Origin: a virus
Lineage: Duplodnaviria; Caudoviricetes
DNA length: 64,000 bases
Virus record (IMG/VR): IMGVR_UViG_3300037721_000031
Span: 64,001-128,000 of that record
Strand: one strand, 5' to 3'
Shown: positions 49,368 through 64,000 of the stretch, piece after piece
How positions within the stretch are numbered: position 1 is the first letter of the stretch
How the letters are laid out: each line of letters opens with the position of its first letter
Position numbers and translations under genes: made by a program
Notes under the pieces: model-generated
Seen by the model: the letters and a program-made list of their open reading frames with translations, nothing else
Told to the model about the DNA's origin: nothing
Databases searched by the model: none

Positions 49368-49388
49368 GATAGTATTGTTAGTTTACGG

Positions 49389-49424
49389 TAAATCTACAGT
49401 CAGTAAAAAGACTTGTAGATTTAC
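49389..49424 (+). terminator. Hairpin terminator candidate
   Basis: TAAATCTACAGTC-AGTAAAAA-GACTTGTAGATTTA followed by CCTCTTTTTTC. Confidence 0.5.
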
Positions 49425-49460
49425 CTCTTTTTTCTTTAATAATCGAAACGGATATTAATT

Positions 49461-52013
49461 ATGGCGACCCAGCTACCTCGCTATCCTCTTGACTCCACCG
49501 GTACTAGTCCTGATAACTTGGTAGTCGGTGAACAACATACATTACCTAACAGAACTATACGCGCACTAGCACCTCTGTACGGTGCATTTTTTACAGAATC
49601 TGTTGTGGTAAGGGATAGATCTAATAATCAAGTTCTCCAAAGAAATGTACAATATACCGCAACAGAACTCTATGAATTTCCTACAGGTCGCTGGGGAAAA
49701 GAAATTTGTGGTATCATTTTAATTACTGATGAAGCAGTCAGTAATGAAGTCGAAGTTGACTATCAGGCTCTCGGTGGTGAGTACAGTACCAATGTCGATG
49801 CAATTGTTTCGATGTTTAATGAAGCGATGCTGGAGCGACCTGTATCTTGGCCTAACATCTTAGGTCAACCGGATGATTTTAATCCGGCTGCTCACTTCCA
49901 TGATGTCGGTGACATTTATGGATTCGAATATGTTGTCAATGCTTTAGAGCGGCTTCGTACAGCAGTATTAATTGGTGATGCGGCATCTCACGAAGAGATC
50001 CTGAAATACATAGATAGACAAGATGAAGATATACGTGCAGACACCGCTGTTGTCTCTGGTAATCTAAGTGAACATACTGCAAACGTAAACAATCCTCACA
50101 ATACGACTAAGAGTCAAGTGGGGTTAGGTAGTGTTGAGAACTACCCAATAGCGACAACTACAGAAGCTCAGACAGGTACGGGTAATGCGTACATGACTCC
50201 AGCTCTAGTCAAATTGTCTATCGCGCCAGAGTTAACTCCATTTCAATCACACATTGCTAATACCAGCAACCCTCACAGTACAACAGCTACTCAAGTGGGA
50301 TTAGGTAGTGTACAGAATTACGATGTATCGACTCAAGCTGAAGCTGAAGCCGGTACCAGTAATGTTAAGTACATGACTCCGTTACGCACGTCACAAGCTA
50401 TCACTACACTGGCATTAGGACCTTTAGCAGTACATGCTGGTAGATCAGATAATCCGCACAATACAACAGCTACACAGGTAGGCTTAGGCAGTGTCAGTAA
50501 CTTTGCTGTAGCTACTCAAGCAGAAGCCGAAGCTGGTGCTAGCGGTACTACTTACATGACTCCGGCTCGTACTGCGCAAGCGATTACAGTACAAGCGTTA
50601 GGGCCTCTTAATACACATACTGCTCGTGTAGATAATCCCCATAATACCTCTAAATCTCAAGTAGGTTTAGGTAATGTTAGTAATTATGGTAATGCCGGTA
50701 TTACTGAGGCTCAAGCCGGCACCAGTGACAGTCATTTCATGACTCCGTTGCGTGTATCTCAGGCTATTAGTGCGTTAGCATTAGTACCTCTGAATACTCA
50801 CACTGCTCGTACTGATAATCCACATAGTACGACTAAATCTCAGGTCGGGTTGGGTAGTGTTGATAATTTCGCGACAGCTAGCCAGGCCGAAGCAGAAGCT
50901 GGTGTAAACGCAATTACGTTTATGACACCTCAGCGTACAGCACAGGCTATCTCTTTACAAGCTGTGGCTCCTTTGAATGTGCATACGGCTAGACAAGATA
51001 ATCCTCACAATACGACTAAGAGTCAAGTGGGGTTAGGTAGTGTTGATAATTTCGCGACAGCTACTCAAGCTGAAGCCCAGGCCGGTGCGAGTAATGCAAC
51101 ATTTATGACTCCTTTGCGTACAGCACAGGCTATAAGTGTTCAAGCGGTAGCTCCACTAAATTCCCACATTACTAACACCAGCAATCCTCATAGTACGACT
51201 GCTTCTCAGGTAGGCTTGGGTAGTGTACAGAATTATCCAGTAGCAACACAAATAGAGGCGGAAGGTGGTGTCAGTACTGTAACATATATGACTCCGTTAC
51301 GTACTGCTCAGTTAATAAATGTACAGGCAATTGCTCCTCTGAATACTCACATTGGTCGTACAGATAATCCTCATAGTACGACTAAATCTCAGGTCGGGTT
51401 GGGTAGTGTCAGTAACTTTGATATTGCTACTCAAGCAGAAGCCCAGGCAGGCAGTAGTAATGTTAAGTACATGACTCCGTTGAGTACTGCGCAAGCGATC
51501 TCGACTCAAGCCATAGCTCCGTTAAATACTCATACTGCCAGAACGGATAACCCCCATAGTACGACAGCTACTCAGGTGGGTTTAGGTAATGTTCAAAATC
51601 TTGGTTTAGCAAATACTTCTGAAGCCCAGGCCGGTACAAGTCATGCATTATACATGACACCATTACTTACAGCTCAAGCAATTAGTGCGCAAGCTTTATC
51701 ACCTCTAAATACTCACGTTGCTAGAACTGATAATCCTCACAGTACTACAGCTACGCAGGTAGGTCTTGGTAGTGTGAGTAACTTCGCTGTAGCTTCACAA
51801 GCAGAGTCTGAAGCGGGTAGCAGTAATGCTAAATACATGACTCCGTTAGGTGTGAATCAACGTGTAGCTGTCCACGTTGCTAGTGGTGATCATGACTCAA
51901 GGTACCCGCGATTGAATGCTAACGTATCTGCAGCCGTTCGTGAATCAGGTGGACAATTTCAAGCATTTATTGGTGGAGCTTGGCGTATTGTGTGGCCTCC
52001 TCAGTGGCAATAA
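49461..52013 (+). CDS. Tail fibre protein 2 with 10 H-x5-NPH repeats
   Basis: N-terminal YPLDSTG...GEQH...APLYGAFF domain paralogous to fibre 1; 10 repeats; C-terminal WRIVWPPQWQ. Confidence 0.85.
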   Translation: MATQLPRYPLDSTGTSPDNLVVGEQHTLPNRTIRALAPLYGAFFTESVVVRDRSNNQVLQRNVQYTATELYEFPTGRWGKEICGIILITDEAVSNEVEVDYQALGGEYSTNVDAIVSMFNEAMLERPVSWPNILGQPDDFNPAAHFHDVGDIYGFEYVVNALERLRTAVLIGDAASHEEILKYIDRQDEDIRADTAVVSGNLSEHTANVNNPHNTTKSQVGLGSVENYPIATTTEAQTGTGNAYMTPALVKLSIAPELTPFQSHIANTSNPHSTTATQVGLGSVQNYDVSTQAEAEAGTSNVKYMTPLRTSQAITTLALGPLAVHAGRSDNPHNTTATQVGLGSVSNFAVATQAEAEAGASGTTYMTPARTAQAITVQALGPLNTHTARVDNPHNTSKSQVGLGNVSNYGNAGITEAQAGTSDSHFMTPLRVSQAISALALVPLNTHTARTDNPHSTTKSQVGLGSVDNFATASQAEAEAGVNAITFMTPQRTAQAISLQAVAPLNVHTARQDNPHNTTKSQVGLGSVDNFATATQAEAQAGASNATFMTPLRTAQAISVQAVAPLNSHITNTSNPHSTTASQVGLGSVQNYPVATQIEAEGGVSTVTYMTPLRTAQLINVQAIAPLNTHIGRTDNPHSTTKSQVGLGSVSNFDIATQAEAQAGSSNVKYMTPLSTAQAISTQAIAPLNTHTARTDNPHSTTATQVGLGNVQNLGLANTSEAQAGTSHALYMTPLLTAQAISAQALSPLNTHVARTDNPHSTTATQVGLGSVSNFAVASQAESEAGSSNAKYMTPLGVNQRVAVHVASGDHDSRYPRLNANVSAAVRESGGQFQAFIGGAWRIVWPPQWQ
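50070..51870 (+). repeat. About 183-bp tandem coding repeats (10 units)
   Basis: 10 NPH motifs with a 61-aa period. Confidence 0.85.
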
Positions 52014-52082
52014 CAGTGATAATTAAAGAGCTTAAAATTACACCTCGCCAATATTTCATGAGTTACATACGAGGAATTCGTA

Positions 52083-52595
52083 ATGACACATGTATTTATA
52101 GAGAAAATGAACCTTAATATAGTTAAGGAAGATCTATATATTGACGAGGTTCTTTTCAGTCCTTATACTTATCAGCAAGAACTTATAAAAATAATAGTAT
52201 CTCCAGACATCTGTATTAATGCTTTAAATGTAGCAGATACAGTAAGACACGCTGACAGGACTATCAAGATAGAGGGAATGGAGAAACTATCCAAAGTCCT
52301 CTATCGACTCTGTCGGCAGATTGCCGACAAAATGAGTCATGATGGTCCTGTCACGTGTCACCTTTTTTTATCTCGTTCTGGATCTGAGAGCTTTCCAGCC
52401 CATACAGATCCAGATAATGTTTTGATTTATATAGTTGATGGTGAGAAGACCATAGTGTTAGATAACGAAACAATTACTCTAACCACGGATCAAGCTTTAT
52501 TTATGCCGTATGGTACTAAGCATCAAGCTGTTAATCAAAAAGAATCAATCATGCTAAGTTTTGGCTTAGAACGGTTTATAGTGGAGAAACTCTAA
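52083..52595 (+). CDS. JmjC/cupin 2OG-Fe(II) oxygenase-like protein
   Basis: SFPAHTDPDNV (HxD), GEK, LFMPYGTKHQA (distal His); resembles RoxA/cupin_4-type hydroxylases. Confidence 0.78.
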   Translation: MTHVFIEKMNLNIVKEDLYIDEVLFSPYTYQQELIKIIVSPDICINALNVADTVRHADRTIKIEGMEKLSKVLYRLCRQIADKMSHDGPVTCHLFLSRSGSESFPAHTDPDNVLIYIVDGEKTIVLDNETITLTTDQALFMPYGTKHQAVNQKESIMLSFGLERFIVEKL

Positions 52596-52597
52596 TT

Positions 52598-53683
52598 ATG
52601 ATGCGCACCGTCTACGTCAAGACTACGGAATCATGTAATCTTGATTGCAAACATTGCTTTACTGGTGGTAATCGACCTCCTCGTACGTTTTTAGATTTAG
52701 CTAAGACTGAGGATTGGATATCTCGCTTTGCTAACTACATATCTCCTGAAGATGATGTGCATTTTGAGTTACATGGAGGAGAACCGTTTCTTGCTCCTGT
52801 AAGTACTCTGAAATCTATTGTAACTACAATACGAGCTACTGGTTTAAAACATATGTCTATTGGAGCTACTACTAATCTAGTATATAAACTCAAAGATGAT
52901 TTGTTAGATTTTATAGTTAATGATTTAGATGCAATTGGTACAAGCTGGGATGCAGGTATTCGTTTCGCTAATGAAAAGCAAGAAGAGTTATGGCGTAAGA
53001 ATCTTCAAACACTAACAGATAAGAACATAAAAGTTGTACTGAATATTAGTGTCTCTCGCGCTGTTGTCGAAATGGATTGCGAAAAATTAATTACATTTAT
53101 TAGAGATACTAAATGTTATAAAGTCTTATTTGACCGTATAACACTTAATGGCAACGCTAATAATCATTTAAAATTATTTCCATCTAATGCTGAAATAAAT
53201 GACTGGTATTTGCGCATGCATGAGGCAACTACTAGACTAGATGCTCGTAAATGGTTTCATAATTCCATGCTAGAAGATGTTTACGCCAAGTTCGAGAATT
53301 CATTCTCAGCATGCGGTACATTCTGCAGAGATTGTGAAGAACGAAATATCACTCTAAATGCAAATGGTTCTATTGGTGGTTGTCCAAATTCTGCTCCTGA
53401 AGAGTTCTTTGGTCACATCGATATGGATATTGCAGAAATGTTCGGTACATCTAAAAGAATAGATGTAATGGTGAAAGAGCGCACACGTAACGATCACTGT
53501 TATACTTGTCCTGTCTTCAGTTACTGTGGATCAGATTGTCATCGTTTGGCGTGGGATGGTGATGTATGTGCTTCACCGAGGCGGTTAATGATGCGGTTAG
53601 CAGGCGTAGATGACTCTCTAGAACAACGACCGGCGACTACCACTCGTGTGTATAAAAACATTATTCCAATCTTTTCATCTTAA
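52598..53683 (+). CDS. Radical SAM/SPASM enzyme 1
   Basis: CNLDCKHC, HGGEPF, TTNL; C-terminal CGTFCRDC, GGCP, CYTCPVFSYCGSDC. Confidence 0.93.
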   Translation: MMRTVYVKTTESCNLDCKHCFTGGNRPPRTFLDLAKTEDWISRFANYISPEDDVHFELHGGEPFLAPVSTLKSIVTTIRATGLKHMSIGATTNLVYKLKDDLLDFIVNDLDAIGTSWDAGIRFANEKQEELWRKNLQTLTDKNIKVVLNISVSRAVVEMDCEKLITFIRDTKCYKVLFDRITLNGNANNHLKLFPSNAEINDWYLRMHEATTRLDARKWFHNSMLEDVYAKFENSFSACGTFCRDCEERNITLNANGSIGGCPNSAPEEFFGHIDMDIAEMFGTSKRIDVMVKERTRNDHCYTCPVFSYCGSDCHRLAWDGDVCASPRRLMMRLAGVDDSLEQRPATTTRVYKNIIPIFSS

Positions 53684-53698
53684 ATTTGAGAATTAAAT

Positions 53699-54274
53699 AT
53701 GCCAGATATTCTTAAAAGTAATGTACAGACCGATGCATATTCGGCTATTGTTGATAACATAAATAGTGTTGCAACCGACTATGGTCCTGCACCTATTGGG
53801 TCAGAACGCGGTTTGTCGTATTGTAATACTGCGATGTTGGAGTATTACAGTTTTGATCCCTCTGAGGCATGGCTTGCTAGCTATTTAAGTGGAAGCATTA
53901 CCCGTAGTGGACTCGTTGCTAGAGTAGGTATACTAGGTGGTTGGTACGCCCGTACTACTTGGGCAATACACGGTTTGACTGGTACTACATCTAGTGGTGC
54001 TTGGGATGGTTTTACTGTTCCATTTAGTGAACTTGATATTTTCTTTGTAAAGCCAGAATATCATCAAAGTCATTATGATGCCACGATAGCGGCTATTGCA
54101 GCTGCCGATACATCTGAATTATTTAATGACATTACTAGAACTGCAGTCGTCTCTTACTTAGTTAGAATTAAAAATGTTGTGCTTAATAATGCCACAACTG
54201 GTGATGTTGTAGATCTAAGAGTATGTCATAGCTCGTGTCACTCTAACTGTCACGGTTCGCGTGGTCGTCGCTAA
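53699..54274 (+). CDS. Protein with C-terminal CHSSCHSNCHGSRGRR motif, candidate radical SAM substrate/precursor
   Basis: Triple C-H-x-x repeat at 54224-54259 followed by RGRR-stop; lies between two radical SAM genes. Confidence 0.7.
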   Translation: MPDILKSNVQTDAYSAIVDNINSVATDYGPAPIGSERGLSYCNTAMLEYYSFDPSEAWLASYLSGSITRSGLVARVGILGGWYARTTWAIHGLTGTTSSGAWDGFTVPFSELDIFFVKPEYHQSHYDATIAAIAAADTSELFNDITRTAVVSYLVRIKNVVLNNATTGDVVDLRVCHSSCHSNCHGSRGRR

Positions 54275-54287
54275 AATAGGTAATAAC

Positions 54288-55355
54288 ATGAAAAATCTTA
54301 TTAACCGTGTTTACATTAAGCACGACAACAATATAACACCAAGTAGCTATCAGTCAAGAATAATTGTTACTGATCGTGAAATGAGATATCCTATTTCAGA
54401 AGAGAGAGAAGTGCTTGATAAGGTGTTTATTAAACACTATGTTAAGTCTCTTGATGAACTGGATACACTGTATGGCGATAGAGAAGGGTTTTGGTCGGCG
54501 ATGCTTCTCTCTACTGAGAAACTGCTGATTATTGCTTCTCCGGCATTTACAGCTGAATTACTAATCCAGTACTGGAAGTCTGTCTTTAAGGATCCGAGTA
54601 GGTCCTTTATTAAGCTAATGTACGATTTGTTTACAGCACAGGAAAATCTACTCGGTTGCCGTGAAAAAGAAAGACAAATATCTAAAGAAGATGTTAACGT
54701 TATTGACAGAAAGTGTGTACCTGTTAGTGATGATTTGTTTAATGCTTTATTTGATAAAGTAGAACATTCGCAGATTGTCTCCGAAGCTCCAGTGACCAAG
54801 TTACCTTTCGAATACCTGCTGATTGGTCACCTGACTAAATCTGGTGGAAAGGGTTTAAATACTGAGTTCTATCGGCGTGCATCAAGTATTGTGCTGTTAA
54901 ACATTGTAAGGGCTATTGTTAATGCTAAAGAAGATTTCTTTAGTGAGACACATAACTACTACTTACTCGATGACGAAACTAGTCTTGGTGAATTGCGTAC
55001 AAATCCGATAGGATATCTTTCTAAGCACAAACGTTTAGCTTGGGTAGTTGATGAAGAGTTTGTATACGGTAATGAGGATGTCATCCTCAAAAAGTATTCT
55101 TTAGATAAGCTTAAAGATATTTTTAAAGTTTATACCACACTCTTTAAGTTTGAATATGATGAAGAGAAAGCTCTTGATTTCATCATAGCCAAAGATTATG
55201 CTGGTATGATTAGATATGATATTGCTGATCAAAAGGGTAATTTCTTTGGCGCAGATAGTTTCACAGCCAAAATAAACGGATTACTTATATCTCACCTTTA
55301 CGAGCTAGTTCGTAATAGTAAGGCTCAAGAATTGGATTGCTTTTCATTGAAGTAA
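54288..55355 (+). CDS. Hypothetical protein of the radical SAM cluster
   Basis: ORF track 54261-55355; the ATG at 54288 after AGGT is the more likely start; no motif recognised. Confidence 0.75.
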   Translation: MKNLINRVYIKHDNNITPSSYQSRIIVTDREMRYPISEEREVLDKVFIKHYVKSLDELDTLYGDREGFWSAMLLSTEKLLIIASPAFTAELLIQYWKSVFKDPSRSFIKLMYDLFTAQENLLGCREKERQISKEDVNVIDRKCVPVSDDLFNALFDKVEHSQIVSEAPVTKLPFEYLLIGHLTKSGGKGLNTEFYRRASSIVLLNIVRAIVNAKEDFFSETHNYYLLDDETSLGELRTNPIGYLSKHKRLAWVVDEEFVYGNEDVILKKYSLDKLKDIFKVYTTLFKFEYDEEKALDFIIAKDYAGMIRYDIADQKGNFFGADSFTAKINGLLISHLYELVRNSKAQELDCFSLK

Positions 55356-56455
55356 CTATGTTCGACAAAAGTAACGTTGTGATTTTTGTAAGAGTTGTGC
55401 AAGGTTGTAATCTTAACTGCACACACTGCTTCACTCTTGGGAACCAAGATAAGGTATTGACAACACCTTTCGAATATATCGATCAGTTTCTTACATCAAT
55501 TAAGAAAAATGTCGATCCACGTCGAGGTGTTGTCTATTTACATGGTGGCGAGACATTCTTAGCTAAGTTATCATATCTTCGCAAAGTAACACAAAGAGCA
55601 CGAGAATTGTTCTCAGAAAAAGACTTTAAGATTATTCCACAGACTAACCTTGTTTATAAGCTTACTGATGACTTTCTAGATTTTATCCGCACAGAGTGTA
55701 ACGGGCATATTGGCGTATCTTGGGATGCCAAGATACGCTTTGGGTCAATTAAGACGGAACATCAAGAACGTCAAGAAGCAATGTATTTTCGTAATTTAAA
55801 AACATTACTAGATAATGGCTTTAAAGTGCATATTACAATTACAGCACAAAGACACTTACTAAACGTTAATCCATTGAACATAGCTAAGATGTTTGCAGGA
55901 GTAGCTTCAATAGACTTTGAACATCTAACAACATTCGATGAGAAGACTAGGGATTTACGTGTTAACTTACTGAAGTGGTCTAATTGGTTAGATAAGCTAG
56001 TTGATTATTATCAGCATAATGACGTAAGCTGGTGCCTGCCTCAGGTTGATCTTTTTACAAAGTCTATTGAGGATGGAGAAATTTATGCTTGTAAATGTAA
56101 CTGCTGTGATAGAAAAACGTTTACTCTAAATCCAAACGGCACTACTGGGTTTTGTCCGGACAATTCTTACATCTCACCTATATCTCATGTAAAAGAGATG
56201 ACTGAATCTTGGTCTACGTATGAAGAGAAAGCTCATAACGCTCACATTGAGCGATTAGCTACTTTGAGTACAGAGAACTGCTATACTTGTGAACATTATG
56301 CTGAGTGTGGCGGTAACTGTGAAGATACTTTCTTTGATGATTCTGGTGAATGTCCATTATCTAAGAAGGTGATCTCACGTATCAAGGAAAACAAGGTAAC
56401 ATTCATTAAATTACTTAATGAGCGTTCGAGTAAGAATTTAGCCGAAATGCAATAA
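55337..56455 (+). CDS. Radical SAM/SPASM enzyme 2
   Basis: CNLNCTHC, HGGETF, QTNL, VSWDA; CKCNCC, GFCP, CYTCEHYAECGGNC; paralogue of enzyme 1; probable start at the ATG at 55358. Confidence 0.93.
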   Translation: MLFIEVTMFDKSNVVIFVRVVQGCNLNCTHCFTLGNQDKVLTTPFEYIDQFLTSIKKNVDPRRGVVYLHGGETFLAKLSYLRKVTQRARELFSEKDFKIIPQTNLVYKLTDDFLDFIRTECNGHIGVSWDAKIRFGSIKTEHQERQEAMYFRNLKTLLDNGFKVHITITAQRHLLNVNPLNIAKMFAGVASIDFEHLTTFDEKTRDLRVNLLKWSNWLDKLVDYYQHNDVSWCLPQVDLFTKSIEDGEIYACKCNCCDRKTFTLNPNGTTGFCPDNSYISPISHVKEMTESWSTYEEKAHNAHIERLATLSTENCYTCEHYAECGGNCEDTFFDDSGECPLSKKVISRIKENKVTFIKLLNERSSKNLAEMQ

Positions 56456-56467
56456 AAGGAATCTGAC

Positions 56468-57307
56468 GTGTCTGACGAAACAACTCAACAACCAGCTAGC
56501 GACGTACCTGTAGTTCCAGAATACCGTGAGGTAACTGCACCTATTGGTACTGAATTTATTAGAGAATTCTTTAAGAATAAGAATATTACATTCCTAGTAA
56601 ATCACTCTCAGTCTAGGTTAAAGGGAGCAGTGTTCCTTACGTACTTGGCTAACTTAGCAGTGCCATCAGATATTAGGTTTGACCAACCCTTATCTGAAGA
56701 CGAGTATGTAACTATCATGAGTGCATACCTGGTACAGCGCACGATTAGTAAAGCTAAGACGTTACAGCTGATGATGGCGCAGGTAATTCTCTGGGCTAAA
56801 GGATTGAGCTTCGACAAGATTCCGTATAAGACTGGTGTACCAGAGAGCCACGTCTTAGCATTTGCTAAGAAGAACGGTCCAACTATCATGAGGTGGTTGC
56901 ACTTTGTTGACTCATCTCATGTCTTCGCAATGTCATCTATCGAAGCACTGAAAAAGGAACATGATCCTTTACAGCATGGCGTTAGCGTCATTGATGATAA
57001 AGAGTATATTGGTCATAACGCAGTATTACTCTACGATGTACCGCTCTTTACAGAGTTCTACTTCTCTATTCCTAATGCAGGTTATCGTTCTTCGTATTTT
57101 GTACGACAGTATGAGGACTACATGTTCGGTAATGAGAAGTTCGCAAAGTTCTTTGCTGTAAAGAATAACTTTTTAGCAAACATATACGAAGGTGTAGCCT
57201 CAGGCTATATTGATCTGAATAAGCCAGAAGAGTGTATGCTACTTGAAGGAAATAATGATGTCGGAAGTATCGCAACTGACAGTACCGAAACACCTCAAAA
57301 CGGATAA
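56468..57307 (+). CDS. Hypothetical protein of the radical SAM cluster
   Basis: 279-aa ORF with upstream AAGGA. Confidence 0.75.
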   Translation: MSDETTQQPASDVPVVPEYREVTAPIGTEFIREFFKNKNITFLVNHSQSRLKGAVFLTYLANLAVPSDIRFDQPLSEDEYVTIMSAYLVQRTISKAKTLQLMMAQVILWAKGLSFDKIPYKTGVPESHVLAFAKKNGPTIMRWLHFVDSSHVFAMSSIEALKKEHDPLQHGVSVIDDKEYIGHNAVLLYDVPLFTEFYFSIPNAGYRSSYFVRQYEDYMFGNEKFAKFFAVKNNFLANIYEGVASGYIDLNKPEECMLLEGNNDVGSIATDSTETPQNG

Positions 57308-58394
57308 CTTCCTGACTTCTGTAGAGCGCGAAAGCGCCACTGGTTATCATCTCAGCTTAAACCTGGAATTACTACGCGGATGCCAGTTTAGCTGTAAGGG
57401 TTGTTTCGTAGATAAGTATGGTTCAGATCCAATGACTGACGAGCGAGGTGCGCAGCTTCTATCTTGGGTTACCAGTGCGCAAGAAGATGGTGGTTATCTA
57501 CCTACGGTAATATTTATCGGACCTACTGACTTCTTATCCTCTGGGAATACCATCGACGTACTGCGAGATCCACGTATTCAGCAAGTTGTCAGACGTTTTA
57601 AAAGACTATCTCTACAAACTACTTGTTTAGATATCAGTACAGCTCCAGAGATTGCTAAAGTGTTACGTGAACACTACAGTCATATGGAACTCGAGGTTAA
57701 CTTCTTAATGGAGCCAGAGCATGTTCTAACAGAGAAGTACCTTCGTACTGTTAAAGAGAATAGAGACAGTCTGTATGAGATAATTGACTGGCACATTCCC
57801 GTAAAAAGCTTCTGTATTATGAACGTCTATGAATACGAGAATGCAAAGAAAGATGACGTCATTAAGCTATTAAATGACTACAAAGAAATGCATTTGCGTA
57901 TCAAGGATATGTTTGATACTACAATTGACTTTAACTTCTCGATGTCAAGAAAACACAATCAAAACAAGTCATCCGAAGTTAAAGAAGCAATCATCAGAGT
58001 AACTAAGATGTTTGATAAAAGTGTTAATCACGATACATCTCAGTTTATTCGTTTCTCGTTTGGAAAATTAACTGATAGTCTGATCGAGAAACATTTTAAC
58101 TTTCTTAATGGTAAGTTTTACGTGTCACCATTACTTTACGATCGTTATGTAGCTTTTGTGCCAGAGTTGCAAATACCGTTTGTAAACTTTACTGTAGCTG
58201 AGTCTGAAGCATTTGAAGAACAGCTACAGCTAGAGCAATATCAGAATGCCGGCCAAAAAGACGAATGTGGTAGTTGTCGTTATCTTGGGTCGTGTACGGA
58301 TAGAAATATTCTTAAAGTTATGGATATCTATTCTATCAAGCACTGCATCATAGCGCGAGACGCCTTGGACAGTATTAACGTACGGCCAAATTAA
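57243..58394 (+). CDS. Radical SAM enzyme 3 (divergent, GPTD type)
   Basis: GCQFSCKGC, FIGPTDFL, C-terminal CGSCRYLGSC; probable start at about 57255-57258. Confidence 0.85.
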   Translation: MKEIMMSEVSQLTVPKHLKTDNFLTSVERESATGYHLSLNLELLRGCQFSCKGCFVDKYGSDPMTDERGAQLLSWVTSAQEDGGYLPTVIFIGPTDFLSSGNTIDVLRDPRIQQVVRRFKRLSLQTTCLDISTAPEIAKVLREHYSHMELEVNFLMEPEHVLTEKYLRTVKENRDSLYEIIDWHIPVKSFCIMNVYEYENAKKDDVIKLLNDYKEMHLRIKDMFDTTIDFNFSMSRKHNQNKSSEVKEAIIRVTKMFDKSVNHDTSQFIRFSFGKLTDSLIEKHFNFLNGKFYVSPLLYDRYVAFVPELQIPFVNFTVAESEAFEEQLQLEQYQNAGQKDECGSCRYLGSCTDRNILKVMDIYSIKHCIIARDALDSINVRPN

Positions 58395-58404
58395 CCTAGT
58401 AACA

Positions 58405-58444
58405 GCATAAGAGAGACTAGAGCGTACGCTCTAGTCTCTTGTGC
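58405..58444 (+). terminator. Hairpin inside the radical SAM cluster
   Basis: GCATAAGAGAGACTAGAGCGT-ACGCTCTAGTCTCTTGTGC. Confidence 0.65.
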
Positions 58445-58469
58445 CATAATTTAATAAAAGGTACTTGAC

Positions 58470-59531
58470 ATGCAAAATGCTGAAGAACAGTTACTTAAAC
58501 AGTTACTCGCTTCCAAAGTACAAGATTCCTCAGAAATAGAACACCATTTATTCGAATTGTGCAATCTTAATTGCTCCTTCTGCGGACAGGATCATGATTC
58601 GAAAGAAGGTATTGATACAATCTTAGAGAAAGCTCATCAGACTGTGGAGTTCATGCGTAACTCTCCATTGAAGAGCCATACAGTCAATGTGATGGGTGGC
58701 GAGATCTTTAATGATTTGGTACCAGATTCTGTATTTGATGACTATTATGCTTTTTATAAAGTTATTAATGACTATGCAGTTTCAAACGACCTTACAGTTA
58801 GAATTAACTTTGTAACCAATTTAATATTTTCTAAGAATACTTCTAGTGTTCAGAAATTACTTGAGATATGTGGTGACAATGTTTGGATTTCTACGTCTTA
58901 CGACTTTGCTGGTAGGGGGCTTGATATAAATCGCATGATGATGTTCAAACGTAATCTAGAGATCTTTAAGCCTCGTATCGGAGTAGTTGGTTTTGTACTG
59001 GCTAAGCCATCTATTCGTAAGTTGATTGCTGATAAAGATAAGTTCTTTAAAGAAGTTCTATACGCTAACTACCCGTTGTACTTTGATTGGTATGTACCTG
59101 AAAATAGTGCAGATAAGATGATGCCTTCAGAGCAAGAGATGCTTGACGGTCTTCTATTCGTTGCTGATCGTTATCCTAAGATAGAGCCAGTTAGAAGCAT
59201 GTTAGAAAATGAAGAAAATAAGATGACATGCTTTTCACTTAATAAGACAACTATCTTACCAGATGGTCGTGAAGTTAAGTGTAGGTATATGGAGTATGAA
59301 GCTGAACAGTTTGAGACTCCAATCGATTATTCTACTAATAGTGGAATCATCAATGCGCATCTCGAACGTAATGAATGTTTTAGTTGCGAGTGGTATAAAA
59401 GGTGTCCATTAGTATGCTTCGTACAATCAGACTGGACAAAAAGAGAAAGACTACCTGTCTGTTTTATGAAAACATTCTTTAACACAGCAGTCGGAAAAAA
59501 TAATGCCACCAACGATACAGATGAAAGATAA
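58470..59531 (+). CDS. Radical SAM enzyme 4
   Basis: CNLNCSFC, MGGEIF, VTNL, STSYD; C-terminal CFSCEWYKRCPLVC. Confidence 0.92.
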   Translation: MQNAEEQLLKQLLASKVQDSSEIEHHLFELCNLNCSFCGQDHDSKEGIDTILEKAHQTVEFMRNSPLKSHTVNVMGGEIFNDLVPDSVFDDYYAFYKVINDYAVSNDLTVRINFVTNLIFSKNTSSVQKLLEICGDNVWISTSYDFAGRGLDINRMMMFKRNLEIFKPRIGVVGFVLAKPSIRKLIADKDKFFKEVLYANYPLYFDWYVPENSADKMMPSEQEMLDGLLFVADRYPKIEPVRSMLENEENKMTCFSLNKTTILPDGREVKCRYMEYEAEQFETPIDYSTNSGIINAHLERNECFSCEWYKRCPLVCFVQSDWTKRERLPVCFMKTFFNTAVGKNNATNDTDER

Positions 59532-60270
59532 AAGATTCGGTAGATTAACAGTTATTGATAATGGTACAAGGTTACCTAACCGTACTCGTGTTTATGAGTG
59601 TCTATGTGAGTGCGGAGTTGTTAAAAAAGTAGACGGTGGTAATCTGAGGCATGGAGTAATAAAAAGTTGCGGATGCTTACGTCGTGAGATTGTTAGTCAA
59701 AGCAATAACAATCTCACTCACGGGATGCGCTATACACCGGAATATCAAGCTTGGATTAACATGCGTAGACGATGTGATGCGGGTCCAGATACGAGGGAGT
59801 ATGCGTATTACGGTGCTAAAGGGATTACTGTTTGCGAAAGATGGCTGAACAGCTTCGAAGCTTTTTATGAAGATATGGGTCCTAGACCATCGCCAGACCA
59901 TTCTATCGATAGAAGAGAAAATGATAAAGGCTACTACAAAAATAATTGTAGATGGGCTACCTGGGAAGAGCAGCAGAATAACAGAAGTAATAATTCAGTT
60001 AATACTGTTGATGGAGTTGTATATTCCTCTATTGCAAAGCTGGCTCGTGAAAAAAATATATCAGAAGCTACTGTAAAAGCAAGAATCTATAAACAAAATA
60101 TGTCTGTAGAAGAAGCTGTTTCTAAAGGAACAAATCGCTATTCACTTATGGTAAACGGTGAAAGTAAATCTGTTAATGAGTTAAGTGAAATAACAAATAA
60201 AACATCTGCTACAATTCGATATCATCTTAGAAGAGGTAGGACTGTAGAAGACATACTTAAAGATAGGTAG
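59503..60270 (+). CDS. Free-standing HNH homing endonuclease overlapping the rSAM-4 3' end
   Basis: RFGRLTVI, CLCECG, SCGC, YGAKGITVCERW, HSIDRRENDKGYYKNNCRWAT; C-terminal HTH repeats. Confidence 0.88.
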   Translation: MPPTIQMKDKRFGRLTVIDNGTRLPNRTRVYECLCECGVVKKVDGGNLRHGVIKSCGCLRREIVSQSNNNLTHGMRYTPEYQAWINMRRRCDAGPDTREYAYYGAKGITVCERWLNSFEAFYEDMGPRPSPDHSIDRRENDKGYYKNNCRWATWEEQQNNRSNNSVNTVDGVVYSSIAKLAREKNISEATVKARIYKQNMSVEEAVSKGTNRYSLMVNGESKSVNELSEITNKTSATIRYHLRRGRTVEDILKDR

Positions 60271-60387
60271 CTTAGATGTTTCGTGAATGCAGATTGGACA
60301 AAGCTAGAGAGACTACCAACTTGCTTTTTAAAGACATTTTTTAATGAAACAGTTGGAAAGAAGAATCATGTTCAGACGACTACTTGA
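60271..60387 (+). pseudogene. Orphan diverged duplicate of the rSAM-4 3' end
   Basis: Translates LRCFVNADWTKLERLPTCFLKTFFNETVGKKNHVQTTT*, versus the rSAM-4 tail LVCFVQSDWTKRERLPVCFMKTFFNTAVGKNNAT... Confidence 0.9.
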
Positions 60388-60526
60388 TGTGTTTATGAAA
60401 GTTACCGGTAATAGTCAATATGGCTGGTGGGCTAAGTATTTATGGGAGGATAAATATGTTTGGTCAGCCACTAAAGAGGCAGCTATACTTGGCTGTCGTC
60501 AAAGAGCAATGGAGAGTAAGAAATGA
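60368..60526 (+). CDS. Small hypothetical protein (52 aa)
   Basis: ATG at 60368 after GGAAAGAAGAATC; MFRRLLDVFMKVTGNSQYGWW...; overlaps the next gene (ATGA). Confidence 0.5.
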   Translation: MFRRLLDVFMKVTGNSQYGWWAKYLWEDKYVWSATKEAAILGCRQRAMESKK

Positions 60527-60849
60527 TTAAAACATTTACTCTGTTCTTTATAACTGCTTACTTTGAGATTCTTGGCTGTTACTCAGTATTGCAATATGTC
60601 AAAACATTTCGGCAAAGTGGCTCCTCTGCCATAGCTCTTATTACTGCAATTATATCTCTCAGTATATTTGCGTGGCTACTTACATTACACCCAACAGAAT
60701 CTGGGAGAGTGTATGCTGCTTATGGCGGCGTATATGTACTTACATCTCTTTTATGGTTGTGGCTTATTGATGGAGTTCATCCGACTGTATCGGATATCTC
60801 AGGAGTAGTGTTAATATTACTAGGCTCACTATTGATAATGAAGCAATAA
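60523..60849 (+). CDS. ynfA: YnfA/UPF0060 family small membrane protein (SMR-like)
   Basis: FEILGCY, LTLHP..SGRVYAAYGGVYV..SLLWLWLIDGVHP; four hydrophobic helices. Confidence 0.88.
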   Translation: MIKTFTLFFITAYFEILGCYSVLQYVKTFRQSGSSAIALITAIISLSIFAWLLTLHPTESGRVYAAYGGVYVLTSLLWLWLIDGVHPTVSDISGVVLILLGSLLIMKQ

Positions 60850-60867
60850 CCTCTCTGGAGAACTATC

Positions 60868-61113
60868 TTGACTTTTGAAGAACTGTTAGAATTGCGTAGA
60901 ACACAAGGTCCAGAAGCTGCAAATGAAGTTTTAAAGACAATGTCTCTAGAACAGATGAGGGACATTACCATTGAAGCTAATAAACAAATTATAAATTTGG
61001 CTAACTTATTTGTTGCGACTTATATGGATTATGCTGTTGAAGCGAACCTACCATCTGCACAAAAAGCAAAACAAGATGTAGATTTTCTCATTAAAAAGGT
61101 AAATGGGAAATGA
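60868..61113 (+). CDS. Hypothetical protein
   Basis: 81 aa, TTG start after GGAG. Confidence 0.6.
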   Translation: MTFEELLELRRTQGPEAANEVLKTMSLEQMRDITIEANKQIINLANLFVATYMDYAVEANLPSAQKAKQDVDFLIKKVNGK

Positions 61114-61553
61114 AGTACGTCGTAGGTCTTTTATTCAGTAAGAAATTGGATCAAGTTCTACTTTTAAAAAAGGTAAAAGGTCCAGAAGGCGTTGTAGGTA
61201 AGTGGAACGGTCATGGTGGTAAAATTGAGCCAACGGAATATGCACTAGATGCTATTGTAAGAGAAACAATTGAAGAGACTGGATTAGTTATACCTGCAAA
61301 AGACTGGTTACTATTTCATCACTTTATTCGAGCCGATGGTAATGAAGTTTATTTCTATACATCTACTATACCAGATAGTCAAACGTACAGTCAGATAGAA
61401 GAAGAAACTATTGAACTAAAATATGTTAATGATGTCATACTGTCTTTTCTTGGAGACGGTAGTTTAAACAATCCACATGTTTATAACTTGTCATACCTTA
61501 TTCCGATGGCGTTGTCTTATTGTAAGTTTCCACAGTTTCGTTACGCTGAGTAA
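61110..61553 (+). CDS. Nudix hydrolase (MutT-like)
   Basis: GKWNGHGGKIEPTEYALDAIVRETIEETGL Nudix box. Confidence 0.9.
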   Translation: MKYVVGLLFSKKLDQVLLLKKVKGPEGVVGKWNGHGGKIEPTEYALDAIVRETIEETGLVIPAKDWLLFHHFIRADGNEVYFYTSTIPDSQTYSQIEEETIELKYVNDVILSFLGDGSLNNPHVYNLSYLIPMALSYCKFPQFRYAE

Positions 61554-61560
61554 ATCAGCT

Positions 61561-61737
61561 TCATTAAATAATGCGAATAGAGAGCTTTTATTATTTTATA
61601 ATAATAAAAATTGGACAGTTGGTGATCTATCTAAAGAATTTGGTATTAAGTATTAGACACTCTACGACCGTATCTTTACTAAAAGATGGAGTGCTGATAA
61701 GTCCATTAATACACCTGTTAATGTTAGGAGTACATAA
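61561..61737 (+). pseudogene. Remnant of an HNH endonuclease C-terminal HTH domain with an internal stop
   Basis: Frame from 61561: SLNNANRELLLFYNNKNWTVGDLSKEFGIKY*TLYDRIFTKRWSADKSINTPVNVRST*; TAG at 61654-61656. Confidence 0.65.
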
Positions 61738-62814
61738 ATGGATCTCATCCTGAAACCAACTTCCGCTTGCAATTTTCGCTGCACGTTTTGCAGTTCAACA
61801 GTTTTAAGTGAAAATGATTCGGATGTACTGGATCTATCTTACGTACGAGAGTTTCTCGTACGTTTCCCAAATACACGAACCATCATAGTCAATGGTGGTG
61901 ATCCGCTAATGATGAGACCAGAGTACTATTGGGAGATTATCAGTATACTTGAAGAACTGGGGCTGAAAGATACCACGATATCACTTACAACTAATCTATG
62001 GGCATTCTACAAAAAGCCTGAGATGTGGCAGGATCTTTTCAAACATCCTCAAGTTGGAGTAGCAACAAGTTTCCAGTATGGTAATGCACGCTTGAAAGGT
62101 GACTATAAGCCTTATACAGAAGAAGAGTTCTGGAAAGTATCTGATTTGTTTTTAGAACGTATTGGATACAGGCCTAGTTTCATTGCGGTCATTACAAAAG
62201 AAAACGAAGACTCAGCAATACAGACTGTTGAATTGGCTAAGAAGATGGGTGTAGTGTGTAAGGTCAATTATGCAGTAGCTTCTGGCCCTAAGAAAACCAC
62301 ATTCAAAGGTATCACAATTGGTAATGCTGGTAGTACGTATGTGCTGTCTGACATTTACGAAATGTATATCAAGATCCATGAAGCAGGATTGACGCAGTGG
62401 GAACATAACACTTCACAAATGGCTGTACGTTTGCGTGGTGAGAACACTACATGCCCACAAGCTCGTGATTGCGACAGCGCTATTAGAACTTTACAGCCTG
62501 GAGGTAAATACTACTCCTGTGGGGCTTTTGGTGATGATGGTCTGTACCCCATCGACTTTAAAAAAGAAATGACTGGAGAGCTCGCTAGGCCCCTGCAAAC
62601 GCATGAGCTAATGTCATTGAAAACTGCGTGCTTCGAATGCCCGATGTTTGATATCTGTAATGGGTGTAGGAAAACTACTCACGATTTGAAGACACTAGGT
62701 TTAGTAGAAACACATTGCAAGAAAATGAAGACTCTTGCATCCAAGATCATTGAGATCAACGGTATGTCTGATGTGCTTAAACCTACTCCTTACATTAAGG
62801 AATATGAAGAATGA
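61738..62814 (+). CDS. Radical SAM/SPASM enzyme 5
   Basis: CNFRCTFC, NGGDPL, TTNL; CPQARDC, YSCG, CFECPMFDICNGC. Confidence 0.93.
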   Translation: MDLILKPTSACNFRCTFCSSTVLSENDSDVLDLSYVREFLVRFPNTRTIIVNGGDPLMMRPEYYWEIISILEELGLKDTTISLTTNLWAFYKKPEMWQDLFKHPQVGVATSFQYGNARLKGDYKPYTEEEFWKVSDLFLERIGYRPSFIAVITKENEDSAIQTVELAKKMGVVCKVNYAVASGPKKTTFKGITIGNAGSTYVLSDIYEMYIKIHEAGLTQWEHNTSQMAVRLRGENTTCPQARDCDSAIRTLQPGGKYYSCGAFGDDGLYPIDFKKEMTGELARPLQTHELMSLKTACFECPMFDICNGCRKTTHDLKTLGLVETHCKKMKTLASKIIEINGMSDVLKPTPYIKEYEE

Positions 62815-63866
62815 GCTACAGTAACTCAGTATCTCTTATACTTGAAGGGAGTCAGGGTTGCCAAATGAATTGTACTGGGTGCCGTATAAACAAAGCATCG
62901 TCATACTTTCCTTCTGAAAGAGAACAGTACGATATAGACGCATTCCTAGACAGTGTTGTAGCTGATGGTTTAGAGCTGGATGAGGTGGAGCTTGGACCTA
63001 CTGATTTATTGTCTGCAAGTAATCGAGTAGAGTTTTTTAGTCCCTATTTGAAGGTATTAATTGAGCGCTTTAAACTAGCAGCTTTTCAAGTATCTCTTAT
63101 TCATCCGAGAGAATCTGTGGAAGGTTTTGTAGCTGATATTAACAAAGTAGCTAACTCAAATTCTAAGATTAATCTTACAACACCGCTTGAAGTGAAGCAT
63201 GTCTTTAATGATAAGTATATTCAGCGTATTAAAGATAATGTTGAAATTATTCGGCAAGGCTCTATTTCTCGTGTAGATGAAGTGGTCTTGAGTGTCGTCT
63301 TCGATATTGATATACTGTCTAATATTGGTTCTAAATATAACTACGAAGAACTCTTTTGCAGAGTGCGTAACTTATCTATAGGTCCTGACACATTAGTAGA
63401 TTTTGTTTTTCATCACGGTCGTGGTGATCTAACTGATCCTGTCGTAGGTAAGAACTTTATAAAATCATTTAAAGAAGTAAATCGCTTCTTTACTAATGAT
63501 TTTGAACGTAATGCAGATATGCCTACAGTAAGAAAAATGCCTTCTCAGCTAGTGGTGCCAAATGACCGTCCAGTGGAAGTTGTTTGGAGAGCAGGTAAGT
63601 TATTCATCAGACCAATCTTAAATGAAGGTTTTGTAATTGAAGACTCTCGTTTTGAGATTTCTAAGCCTTGGGATGCATCGACATATCGTACAAAGTTGAT
63701 TGAAGACATAACTCGCAATCTGGAATATTCGGAACAGATAGATGATTGTCAAAGCTGTCAACACGTGATGCTGTGTGCCTCACGTTCCATGCATGACGTA
63801 TTACAAATGGTTGGTAGTAAGCATTGTTTCTACTTGCTTAAAGACTATAAACCAATTGAATTGTAA
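62811..63866 (+). CDS. Radical SAM enzyme 6 (divergent, GPTD type)
   Basis: GCQMNCTGC, ELGPTDLL, C-terminal CQSCQHVMLC; paralogue of enzyme 3. Confidence 0.85.
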   Translation: MSYSNSVSLILEGSQGCQMNCTGCRINKASSYFPSEREQYDIDAFLDSVVADGLELDEVELGPTDLLSASNRVEFFSPYLKVLIERFKLAAFQVSLIHPRESVEGFVADINKVANSNSKINLTTPLEVKHVFNDKYIQRIKDNVEIIRQGSISRVDEVVLSVVFDIDILSNIGSKYNYEELFCRVRNLSIGPDTLVDFVFHHGRGDLTDPVVGKNFIKSFKEVNRFFTNDFERNADMPTVRKMPSQLVVPNDRPVEVVWRAGKLFIRPILNEGFVIEDSRFEISKPWDASTYRTKLIEDITRNLEYSEQIDDCQSCQHVMLCASRSMHDVLQMVGSKHCFYLLKDYKPIEL

Positions 63867-63913
63867 AGTAACAATATCTACGTTTCAATTCTACTGTTGA
63901 ATGGAGAAAAAAT

Positions 63914-64000
63914 ATGGCATTCAACGAGAAGGCTGCTGCATTAATTTTCGAAGTCACTCATGGTTGTCAGTATAGCTGTACAGGCTGTACTGTAAATAAA
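63914..64000 (+). CDS. Radical SAM enzyme 7, N-terminal fragment cut by the window end; missing from the ORF track
   Basis: ATG at 63914 after GGAG: MAFNEKAAALIFEVTHGCQYSCTGCTVNK, containing CxxxCxxC. Confidence 0.8.
   Translation, partial: MAFNEKAAALIFEVTHGCQYSCTGCTVNK

Follow-up and report, generated by a model that had tools for sequence, protein, structure and literature searches.

A widespread phage cassette of radical-SAM enzymes behind tail-fibre genes, and a candidate virion-protein substrate with an invariant Cys-His tail

Examination of a 64,000-nucleotide stretch of DNA (termed here the 'window', and corresponding to bases 64001-128000 of the 266.6-kb, approximately 98% complete IMG/VR phage genome IMGVR_UViG_3300037721_000031) identified, directly behind a pair of tail-fibre genes, a cassette in which eight radical S-adenosylmethionine (rSAM) enzymes, a predicted cupin-type oxygenase and several orphan proteins are encoded together with a 191-residue protein that ends in alternating cysteine and histidine residues (the 'CH protein'). 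The cassette is found in hundreds of uncultured phages, its gene set recurs in the same order across many phage loci, the tail of the CH protein is close to invariant among them, and the orthologue from one cultured phage is found in virions. The reading that we favour, and consider probable, is that the cassette enzymes mature the CH protein, as a virion protein of the tail-fibre module; the cassette would then represent an uncharacterised and widespread way of maturing proteins by rSAM enzymes, here in the setting of a virion. In this mechanism, the core rSAM enzymes of families A, D and E (SPASM type) and H (twitch-like) would install several covalent modifications on the CH tail, with further modifications contributed by rSAM paralogues of family C and by the JmjC-type cupin. 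At the three C-H-x-S units, the most plausible products would be cross-links of the C-C or C-S type formed by radical chemistry, or oxidised Cys or Ser residues, and the cupin might hydroxylate the Arg-rich end of the tail. Once matured, the CH protein would join the tail-fibre module of the virion, the enzymes being left in the cell.

The CH protein is encoded, as a previous sequence-only reading of the window had proposed, at 53699-54274, and its C-terminus (CHSSCHSNCHGSRGRR) is the sole motif of its kind in the genome. All 134 distinct tailed homologues gathered from the family end in the pattern C-H-x-S-C-H-x-S/N-C-H-G-S-R-G-R-R, the successive counts being C 134, H 134, x, S 125, C 134, H 134, x, S 92 or N 38, C 134, H 134, G 119, S 128, R 134, G 133, R 134 and R 134, followed by the stop codon; identity in the body of the protein is just 20-30%. 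The homologues from phages RSF1, DT01 and Atu_ph07 display overall identities of 23-31%, and each ends in CH(S/T)SCH(S/T/A)(S/N)CH..R.RR. A word-indexed search returned 58 relatives, every one with the same ending, and when 1.84 billion cluster representatives were searched with a profile, 799 clusters of the CH family (defined at 50% identity) were recovered at E <=1e-3, with 505 of them at E <=1e-10. Across 69 distinct versions of the tail-coding DNA, TGT and TGC, CAT and CAC, both Ser codon families, and AGR and CGN codons are used freely; since synonymous codons vary in this manner, selection acts on the tail peptide and not on a DNA or RNA element. AlphaFold2 modelling predicts, with confidence, an alpha/beta fold for the N-terminal domain (pLDDT 82, pTM 0.78) and a flexible tail, so that the domain would be a folded carrier and not a disordered leader, a point that counts in favour of maturation. 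Fold searches with that domain against the PDB (using Foldseek), AFDB, BFVD and the ESM Atlas returned only its own family, and a wider fold search (VIA) produced Z values of at most 4.6 and no known fold. The CH protein matched no model in Pfam or NCBIfam, and neither a peptidoglycan-binding domain nor a signal peptide is apparent in it. Because an invariant tail is held on a variable, folded carrier, and its gene is fixed in place amid SPASM enzymes, modification of the tail is the simplest account of these observations. The proposal of the sequence-only reading, of a pathway resembling those for ribosomally synthesised and post-translationally modified peptides (RiPPs) in which multiple rSAM enzymes act on a Cys/His-tailed protein, is thus borne out as regards conservation and synteny, and it is on these grounds that we infer the tail to be the substrate.

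Several natural variants of the CH protein were also encountered. A single copy of its gene is present in the genome, and two tandem copies are found in 18 other loci. One metagenomic member (P0185, 319 residues) carries an insert of approximately 135 residues that interrupts the otherwise invariant tail and displays intein hallmarks: it begins with Cys, contains a T-x-x-H block and a VYDIEV...H block, and ends in ...SN followed by Cys. Its position is precisely at the boundary of the first C-H-x-S unit with the second (YCHSS / CHSSCHGSRSRR), and highly conserved functional sites are the usual targets of inteins. In P0106 (L099 8001-9362; L100 6019-7380) an N-terminal glycine-rich PF21722 domain (43 bits) is fused to the CH domain and tail, within a canonical cassette (cupin, rSAM, CH, u279 and so on). 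A subfamily represented by P0129, P0139, P0143, P0176, P0187 and P0190 is devoid of RGRR and ends in ...CHSSCH(S/G)SCHGS(I/L), and other variants either carry one or two residues inserted before RGRR (CHSAGRGRR) or possess two CH units only. Such variants could help to map the residues needed by each enzyme. Three BFVD entries from Myoviridae sp. ctijX18 (A0A8S5USJ7, A0A8S5USJ8 and A0A8S5USV2, 504-660 residues) are weak structural matches to the CH N-terminal domain (E 4e-3 to 9e-2, TM 0.37-0.49), and, to judge from these model comparisons, may be larger proteins in which that domain is embedded.

All of the open reading frames (ORFs) previously listed for the block are present on the + strand, and every gene from 45507 to window-equivalent 67124 is encoded on that strand, which flips at that point, near the end of the cassette. 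Retrieval of the sequence beyond position 64000 (continuation L001), as the sequence-only reading had recommended, placed the cassette end approximately 3.1 kb past the window, completed rSAM7 and revealed the eighth rSAM gene. The block is organised as follows.

45507..49367, + strand: tail-fibre-like virion structural protein, 1286 residues (PHROG virion structural/tail/tail fiber, E down to 6e-302)
49461..52013, + strand: tail-fibre protein, 850 residues, immediately 5' of the cassette (PHROG tail/tail fiber, E down to 1e-257)
52083..52595, + strand: predicted cupin/JmjC-type Fe(II) oxygenase, the first cassette gene (Cupin_2, JmjC_2)
52598..53683, + strand: rSAM1 (family A), radical SAM/SPASM (CNLDCKHC at residue 13, seven-Cys SPASM)
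53699..54274, + strand: CH protein, candidate substrate and putative virion component (predicted folded N-domain, invariant C-terminal tail)
54224..54271, + strand: codons of the 16-residue tail C-H-S-S-C-H-S-N-C-H-G-S-R-G-R-R, within the CH protein gene
54261..55355, + strand: u364, a label without assigned function (phrog_36207, annotated as unknown); its real start is probably the conserved Met at 54288 (residue 10)
55337..56455, + strand: rSAM2 (second family-A paralogue), radical SAM/SPASM (CNLNCTHC, full SPASM)
56468..57307, + strand: u279, orphan protein (AlphaFold2 pLDDT 80)
57243..58394, + strand: rSAM3 (family C), four-Cys C-terminal cluster (CQFSCKGC, CX2CX5C...C)
58470..59531, + strand: rSAM4 (family D), radical SAM/SPASM, core enzyme (CNLNCSFC, full SPASM)
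59503..61553, + strand: variable insert with an HNH-type homing endonuclease, a 60-residue ORF, YnfA/UPF0060, an 81-residue ORF and a Nudix protein (Pfam)
59503-60270, + strand: the HNH-type homing endonuclease of that insert
61738..62814, + strand: rSAM5 (family E), radical SAM/SPASM, best-conserved enzyme (Radical_SAM 56.1 bits, full SPASM)
62811..63866, + strand: rSAM6 (family C paralogue; CQMNCTGC, CX2CX5C...C)
63914..64000, + strand: rSAM7 (family C paralogue), truncated by the window end (full gene L001 13915-15033, 372 residues)
L001 15054-15539, + strand: u161, 161 residues, past the window
L001 15547-16506 (window-equivalent 65547-66506), + strand: rSAM8 (family H), 319 residues, past the window
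L001 16503-16934, + strand: u143, conserved 143-residue protein, past the window
L001 16915-17124, + strand: 69-residue zinc-finger-like ORF, past the window

The CxxxCxxC motif is found in all eight rSAM proteins, at residues 11-47. The sequence-only reading had counted seven such proteins (those starting at 52598, 55337, 57243, 58470, 61738, 62811 and 63914), each of which does carry the motif; its total is raised by one through rSAM8. Its description of SPASM- or twitch-like C-terminal Cys clusters was accurate. A complete seven-Cys SPASM signature (tested as CX9-15GX4C ... CX2CX5CX2-3C ... C, representing two auxiliary clusters) is present in rSAM1, 2, 4 and 5, with rSAM5 displaying the variant CX2CX5CX2C, and rSAM3, 6, 7 and 8 harbour only the CX2CX5C...C portion, a twitch-like four-Cys arrangement. 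The Pfam Radical_SAM model (PF04055) scores above its cut-off of 29.5 bits for rSAM5 alone, is borderline for rSAM2 (29.3 bits) and rSAM8 (28.7 bits), is weaker for rSAM1 and rSAM4, and falls below the cut-off for rSAM3 (21.6 bits). When Pfam and NCBIfam are taken together, radical-SAM models match rSAM1, 2, 4, 5 and 8, and rSAM3 weakly; no model in either collection matched rSAM6 or rSAM7, both of which are paralogues of rSAM3 (rSAM6 is 38% identical to rSAM7 and 24% to rSAM3, and rSAM2 is 29% identical to rSAM1). The TIGR04085 SPASM model scores 28.1 bits for rSAM1 (cut-off 27), 22 for rSAM2 and 21.5 for rSAM5. Elsewhere in the genome, unlinked to the cassette, a 324-residue frame on the - strand (G000:C1:175595-175867) displays a weak Radical_SAM match of 18.2 bits.

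The nearest NCBIfam relatives of rSAM1, 2 and 5 are DynA, anSME (the anaerobic sulfatase-maturating enzyme), PapB, YhhB and FxsB, all scoring far below their family cut-offs; the top match of rSAM1 is DynA (2e-15), and those of rSAM2 are anSME and YhhB. The anSME model TIGR03942 yields 45.0, 41.1 and 41.8 bits for rSAM1, 2 and 5 against a cut-off of 349. Profiles of families A and E nevertheless align from end to end with anSME crystal structures (A 4e-11, E 5e-7), and additionally match ChlB, CteB and YydG in the PDB; the best PDB match of family H is the peptide epimerase YydG (1e-9), and a PDB profile search with family D found no solved relative. The rSAM proteins have no N-terminal extension of the size of a RiPP recognition element (RRE), and in this respect resemble anSME, which is itself a protein modifier. 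The sequence-only reading had named clustering with QueE, MoaA or NrdG as a result that would speak against it, and no such clustering was found: MoaA scores 38.3 bits (cut-off 284), NrdG 31.2 (131) and QueE 20.9 (260), with the similarity to these three and to viperin being low in score and confined to the generic N-terminal rSAM core. By sequence comparison, the nearest relatives of the cassette enzymes are enzymes that act on proteins or peptides, not on cofactors or nucleotides. The product of the gene at 52083, previously read as a JmjC oxygenase, scores above cut-off for Cupin_2 (37.8 bits against 27.2) and JmjC_2 (29.7 bits against 22) and carries the HxD...H iron triad (H107-T-D109 and a distal His in ...GTKHQA); its sequence features assign it to the JmjC-type Fe(II) oxygenase family. 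A predicted complex of rSAM-A with the CH protein gave a score of 0.02, and, as the prediction had no controls, speaks neither for nor against binding.

The generality of the cassette was established by several searches. Using tblastn, relatives of rSAM5 and rSAM8, the enzymes with the highest conservation, were located in the same 15 phage records, the carriers being Ralstonia RSL2, RSF1, RsoM3USA and the FLC4 phages and the Burkholderia phages FLC6, FLC8 and S13, with further carriers in Pseudomonas phage pPa_SNUABM_DT01, Agrobacterium phage Atu_ph07 and Sinorhizobium phage Phosso. In RSF1, DT01 and Atu_ph07 the identity of rSAM5 (family E) is 57-74% and that of rSAM8 (family H) 50-55%, and the rSAM3 orthologue of RSF1 is 49% identical. 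A megablast search of the block against the phage collection gave no match, nor did tblastn when a CH homologue of marine origin served as the query. When four lineages were compared all against all by BLAST, this defined a universal core consisting of the cupin, rSAM-A, CH, u279, rSAM-D, rSAM-E and rSAM-H, with C-type rSAMs, u364 and u143 as frequent accessories. Pattern-based retrieval then provided at least 87 viral contigs (80 of which were kept) and five contigs from bacterial metagenome-assembled genomes (MAGs), and 93 loci were mapped with family hidden Markov models built from the window proteins. The order cupin, A, CH, u279, u364, D, E, H, u143 is kept in approximately 90 loci, carried by phiKZ-like, Rak2/T4-like and marine T4-like phages; because gene set and order recur in so many independent loci, the arrangement is not due to chance. 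Over the 93 loci, the CH-tailed protein is present in 89 (the sequence-only reading had suggested that neighbourhoods be checked for just such a Cys/His-motif protein, and had named its absence from homologous clusters as a result that would count against the proposal), u279 in 84, D in 82, A in 74, E in 68, the cupin and u364 in 66 each, and u143 in 56, so that u279 is the commonest partner of the CH protein. No protease or exporter family is found among the conserved or accessory cassette genes; related loci carry B12-dependent rSAM methyltransferases, 2-oxoglutarate (2OG) oxygenases and a SAM methyltransferase. No paper describing the cassette was found in the literature: genome papers merely list its genes as 'radical SAM' or 'hypothetical', one marine study reports 12 rSAM genes in a T4-like genome, and a comparative review of jumbo phages is silent on it.

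The cassette is also linked to fibre genes well beyond this genome. In the window, as the sequence-only reading had noted, the block lies directly behind two genes whose products match tail-fibre and virion-structural PHROGs. The main architecture consists of a giant gene product of 1500-2200 residues, proteins of approximately 75 and 400-1000 residues, the cupin, A, CH, u279, u364, D, a variable position, E, a second variable position, H and u143. In a second architecture, a giant of 2800-3200 residues is followed by two CH genes, a protein of approximately 353 residues, u279, five C-type rSAMs and D, with u143, H and E on the opposite strand. The giants are tail-fibre proteins (DUF4815, phrog_5342, phrog_19602). 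Among 45 non-redundant viral loci with sufficient upstream sequence, 33 have a same-strand ORF of >=800 residues ending <=6 kb upstream. The fusion of a CH family member to the glycine-rich domain PF21722 also counts towards this linkage. Both tail-fibre proteins in the window are built from repeats of approximately 60 residues containing NPH(S/N)TT(K/A)SQVGLG(S/N)V.N(F/Y), with about 14 matched stretches in the 1286-residue protein and about 10 in the 850-residue protein.

The presence of a CH orthologue in virus particles is documented for Agrobacterium phage Atu_ph07, the virion proteomics of which (Table S5 of Attai et al., PMC6102473) list gp170 as hypothetical, give its mass as 31.89 kDa, and report 8 unique peptides that cover 35.16% of it. 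The translated CH orthologue of that phage likewise has a mass of 31.89 kDa, and because its mass and those of gp176 and gp177 all fit the table, the gene numbering is identical. The C-terminal tryptic peptide of gp170 is NMWYQSANVTASIGVDFCHSSCHASCHNSR. The virion list does not contain gp164, gp165, gp168, gp169, gp171 or gp172 (PMC6102473), which correspond to rSAM-H, E, D, u279, rSAM-A and the cupin, respectively; it does contain gp176 and gp177, encoded between the giant gp180 and the cupin (PMC6102473). The giant itself, a 'T4-like structural protein' encoded just upstream by 13,350 bp, is absent from the list, and gp181 and gp182 appear in it (PMC6102473). In the gel, gp170 was spread over slices 1-9 and was most abundant in slice 1, and among the table entries covered, most others with their peak in that slice have masses of 75-139 kDa (PMC6102473); gp321 (36 kDa) likewise peaks in the top slice (PMC6102473). 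A 32-kDa protein that peaks in slice 1 despite treatment with sodium dodecyl sulfate (SDS) and heating hints at a high-mass species that is covalent or exceptionally stable. Since no protease or exporter accompanies the cassette, fibre genes are constantly nearby, and the carrier is found in particles without the enzymes, the product would be a virion protein of the fibre module. Of the two outcomes that the sequence-only reading had left side by side, a virion protein or a modified peptide, it is the former that these observations favour, and we infer that the CH protein of the present phage is likewise carried in its virion.

Several observations nonetheless weigh against reading the CH protein as a matured virion component of the fibre module. 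A single distant orthologue, with 23% identity, provides the virion evidence, and the smear of gp170 over slices 1-9 could represent an SDS-stable oligomer rather than a covalent product. Records of the RSF1 type do not mark their CH orthologue as structural. In 12 of the 45 viral loci no ORF of >=800 residues lies upstream, and in 7 of those none exceeds 220 residues. Finally, complete cassettes are found in Bacteriovoracaceae MAG contigs (L090-L098; G001:C3, G002:C13), and their presence in the chromosomes of these bacteria indicates that a virion is not strictly required. All five bacterial carriers are Bacteriovoracaceae or Bdellovibrionota MAGs, and no further group matched when 185,579 species were searched for the motif. 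In two of the MAGs the flanking genes are chromosomal (FlhA, FeoB, serine hydroxymethyltransferase and sulfatase). A 375-residue fibre-like protein with an S74 intramolecular-chaperone domain adjoins one bacterial cassette, and a Mu-type transposase gene is found downstream. A search of the Bacteriovoracaceae MAGs with the T4 capsid protein gp23 was uninformative, as the control itself gave no match anywhere.

Comparison with characterised systems places the cassette closest to the HXS antiphage system of bacteria, of which it is not a member. In that system (Li et al., Nat Commun 2026, PMC13128918) the effector HxsA, with five HxS repeats, is matured by the rSAM enzymes HxsB and HxsC, together with HxsD, with a mass change of +8 Da on S-H-R-S-S, and blocks the entry of phage DNA from the periplasm (PMC13128918). 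The two systems share a protein-sized effector with tandem His-x-Ser units, more than one rSAM enzyme, identical spacing in S-H-R-S-S and C-H-x-S-C, and basic residues beside the repeats. They differ in that HXS (HxsA/B/C/D; TIGR03976-03979) is bacterial, consists of four genes, and is periplasmic and antiphage, whereas the cassette is phage-encoded, with 4-8 rSAMs, a cupin and three orphan proteins, and its motif has an invariant Cys before each His, is strictly C-terminal, ends in RGRR and is unaccompanied by a peptidoglycan-binding domain. The scan for HxsB and HxsC that the sequence-only reading had suggested gave 30.4 bits for rSAM1 with HxsB (TIGR03978; cut-off 370) and 27.3 bits for rSAM5 with HxsC (TIGR03977; cut-off 267.9), which sets the cassette outside the His-Xaa-Ser family; as a counterpart of HxsA, the CH protein has three H-x-S units and no recognisable N-domain fold, HxsD not having been searched for. 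By analogy, the comparison suggests that related HxS chemistry serves both phages and bacteria, each on its own side of the infection.

Among protein-maturing enzymes, anSME (TIGR03942; PDB 4K36-4K39) is the best full-length structural relative of families A and E, with approximately 360 residues, a complete SPASM domain and no RRE, and modifies Cys or Ser residues in its protein substrate; the cassette differs from it in scoring 41-45 bits against 349, in having no sulfatase motif (C/S-x-P/A-x-R) as such, and in containing no sulfatase gene. DynA, PapB, YhhB and FxsB are cyclophane or thioether formers, and SPASM peptide maturases cross-link repeated short motifs with Cys or an aromatic or His residue; the cassette is set apart from the former group by scores far below cut-off, an unrelated substrate family and many more enzymes per substrate. 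The substrate of QhpD is a protein subunit that stays in a larger complex and receives several thioethers. In the proteusin pathway for polytheonamide, an rSAM epimerase and B12-rSAM methyltransferases work on one ribosomal substrate together with a 2OG hydroxylase and a SAM methyltransferase, and related cassette loci are similar in carrying a YydG-like rSAM, B12-rSAMs, 2OG oxygenases and a methyltransferase; they differ in their core and in their setting in a phage and its virion, and have neither a nitrile-hydratase-like leader nor a protease. On these analogies, the cassette may work as a protein-maturing SPASM system (in the manner of anSME or QhpD/QhpC) with multi-enzyme tailoring in the style of proteusins. 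Judged by its relatives, the cassette could form His-x-Ser C-C links of the cyclophane type or thioethers at Cys, and could oxidise Cys or Ser in the manner of anSME; the YydG-like enzyme could act as an epimerase, and the JmjC-type cupin could hydroxylate Arg.

An alternative in which the CH protein is a scaffold, chaperone or adaptor that binds metal or an Fe-S cluster through its Cys3His3 tail, with a tail fibre or other virion protein as the true substrate, appears rather unlikely. Alternating Cys and His residues are classic metal ligands, the cassette is syntenic with giant fibre genes, and u279 and u364 match the CH N-terminal domain in their rate of evolution, as would be expected if they contact variable parts of fibres. 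No other protein near the cassette carries a similarly invariant motif, however, and some loci, including the Bacteriovoracaceae copies, have no adjacent giant fibre gene; in addition, metal binding alone does not account for the near-invariance of both the position-4 Ser and the terminal RGRR, and duplication of the CH gene, seen in 18 loci, is frequent for substrates.

Release of a natural product is similarly doubtful. On this view the CH protein would be the precursor of a RiPP or a cofactor, its leader being unusually large, and its tail would be cut off after modification to act as a free, hypermodified peptide, which might be a metallophore, an antibiotic, a signal or a redox cofactor (compare pyrroloquinoline quinone, PQQ, or mycofactocin). 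The enzyme set does resemble RiPP and proteusin pathways in its SPASM and YydG-like rSAMs and in the B12-rSAM methyltransferases, 2OG oxygenases and SAM methyltransferase added by other loci, and peptide-derived cofactors characteristically combine an invariant core with an N-terminal part that varies. The lack of a conserved protease or exporter, the predicted globular N-terminal domain, the recovery of gp170 from virions at 35% coverage and the tight linkage to fibre genes all argue against such release.

It is quite improbable that the CH protein is an HXS-like effector whose matured, basic HxS tail binds DNA during genome entry or exit, so as to exclude superinfecting phages, to aid delivery of the phage's own DNA or to block a host HXS defence. 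The HxS repeats of HxsA are matured by two rSAM enzymes, S-H-R-S-S parallels C-H-x-S-C, and DNA binding by HxsA requires basic residues (PMC13128918), a feature with a possible counterpart in the RGRR end of the CH tail; the HxsB and HxsC scores (30 against 370 and 27 against 268 bits), the lack of any NCBIfam match, peptidoglycan-binding domain or apparent signal peptide in the CH protein, and its fibre linkage and virion presence indicate otherwise. Modification of a nucleotide, DNA base, lipid or cofactor, with the CH protein being incidental, is very improbable, since the dihydrofolate reductase (DHFR) genes of the RSF1 block and the Nudix gene of the window lie in an unconserved, variable insertion spot, the weak N-terminal likeness to MoaA, viperin and NrdG is limited to the generic rSAM core at scores (as with QueE) far below cut-off, and the full-length matches are to protein maturases.

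The variable insert at 59503-61553 is best considered apart from the cassette proper. The sequence-only reading had recognised YnfA/UPF0060 (96.6 bits in Pfam) and the Nudix protein (39 bits) in the block, and both are present; their membership in the cassette did not hold, as they lie in a lineage-specific insert, the HNH gene of which had been missed. Other loci lack these HNH, YnfA and Nudix genes, which are thus not pathway members. At the same rSAM4/rSAM5 junction, RSF1 carries an HNH gene and two DHFR genes; because an HNH-containing insert occupies the identical junction there, the site looks like an insertion hot spot. Elsewhere this junction carries 2OG oxygenases or B12-binding rSAMs, and 2OG oxygenases of family PF13759, which are common in related cassettes, were not found in this genome. 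The HNH homing endonuclease has a C-terminal helix-turn-helix domain, and the insert looks mobile; the YnfA/UPF0060 membrane protein is unusual in a phage.

The orphan partners yielded few clues to function. Fold searches with u279 returned no known fold, a feature search of the Atlas was uninformative, PDB profile searches with u279 and u143 gave no match, and a Pfam scan of 24 members of the u364 family identified no family. A stretch common to u279 and u364 (E-[ED]-[FY]-x-[YF]-G-N-E) had raised the possibility that the two are paralogous, which was rejected when hhalign found them unrelated. A scan for promoters and terminators across 49000-64000 was not informative, producing fewer sites than shuffled controls.

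The general view is that tailed-phage virion proteins mature through folding, through proteolysis and, rarely, through autocatalytic cross-linking, as in HK97. A set of 4-9 radical enzymes, all sensitive to oxygen, reserved for a single 16-residue tail would add a new layer to the biochemistry of virus particles; such maturation would bear on host recognition, and would offer a source of new peptide chemistry on a Cys-His-x-Ser scaffold. Because cultured carriers exist (Atu_ph07, RSL2/RSF1, FLC6, S13 and pPa_SNUABM_DT01), the question is directly testable. More tentatively, the tail might be converted into a cross-linked or metal-binding prosthetic structure that either locks the CH protein into the fibre tip, through a radical cross-link between proteins, or forms an element in contact with the host. 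If so, it would constitute an enzyme-built chemical organ of the virus particle, previously unknown, common to hundreds of environmental phages, and co-opted as the same prosthetic structure by predatory Bacteriovoracaceae.

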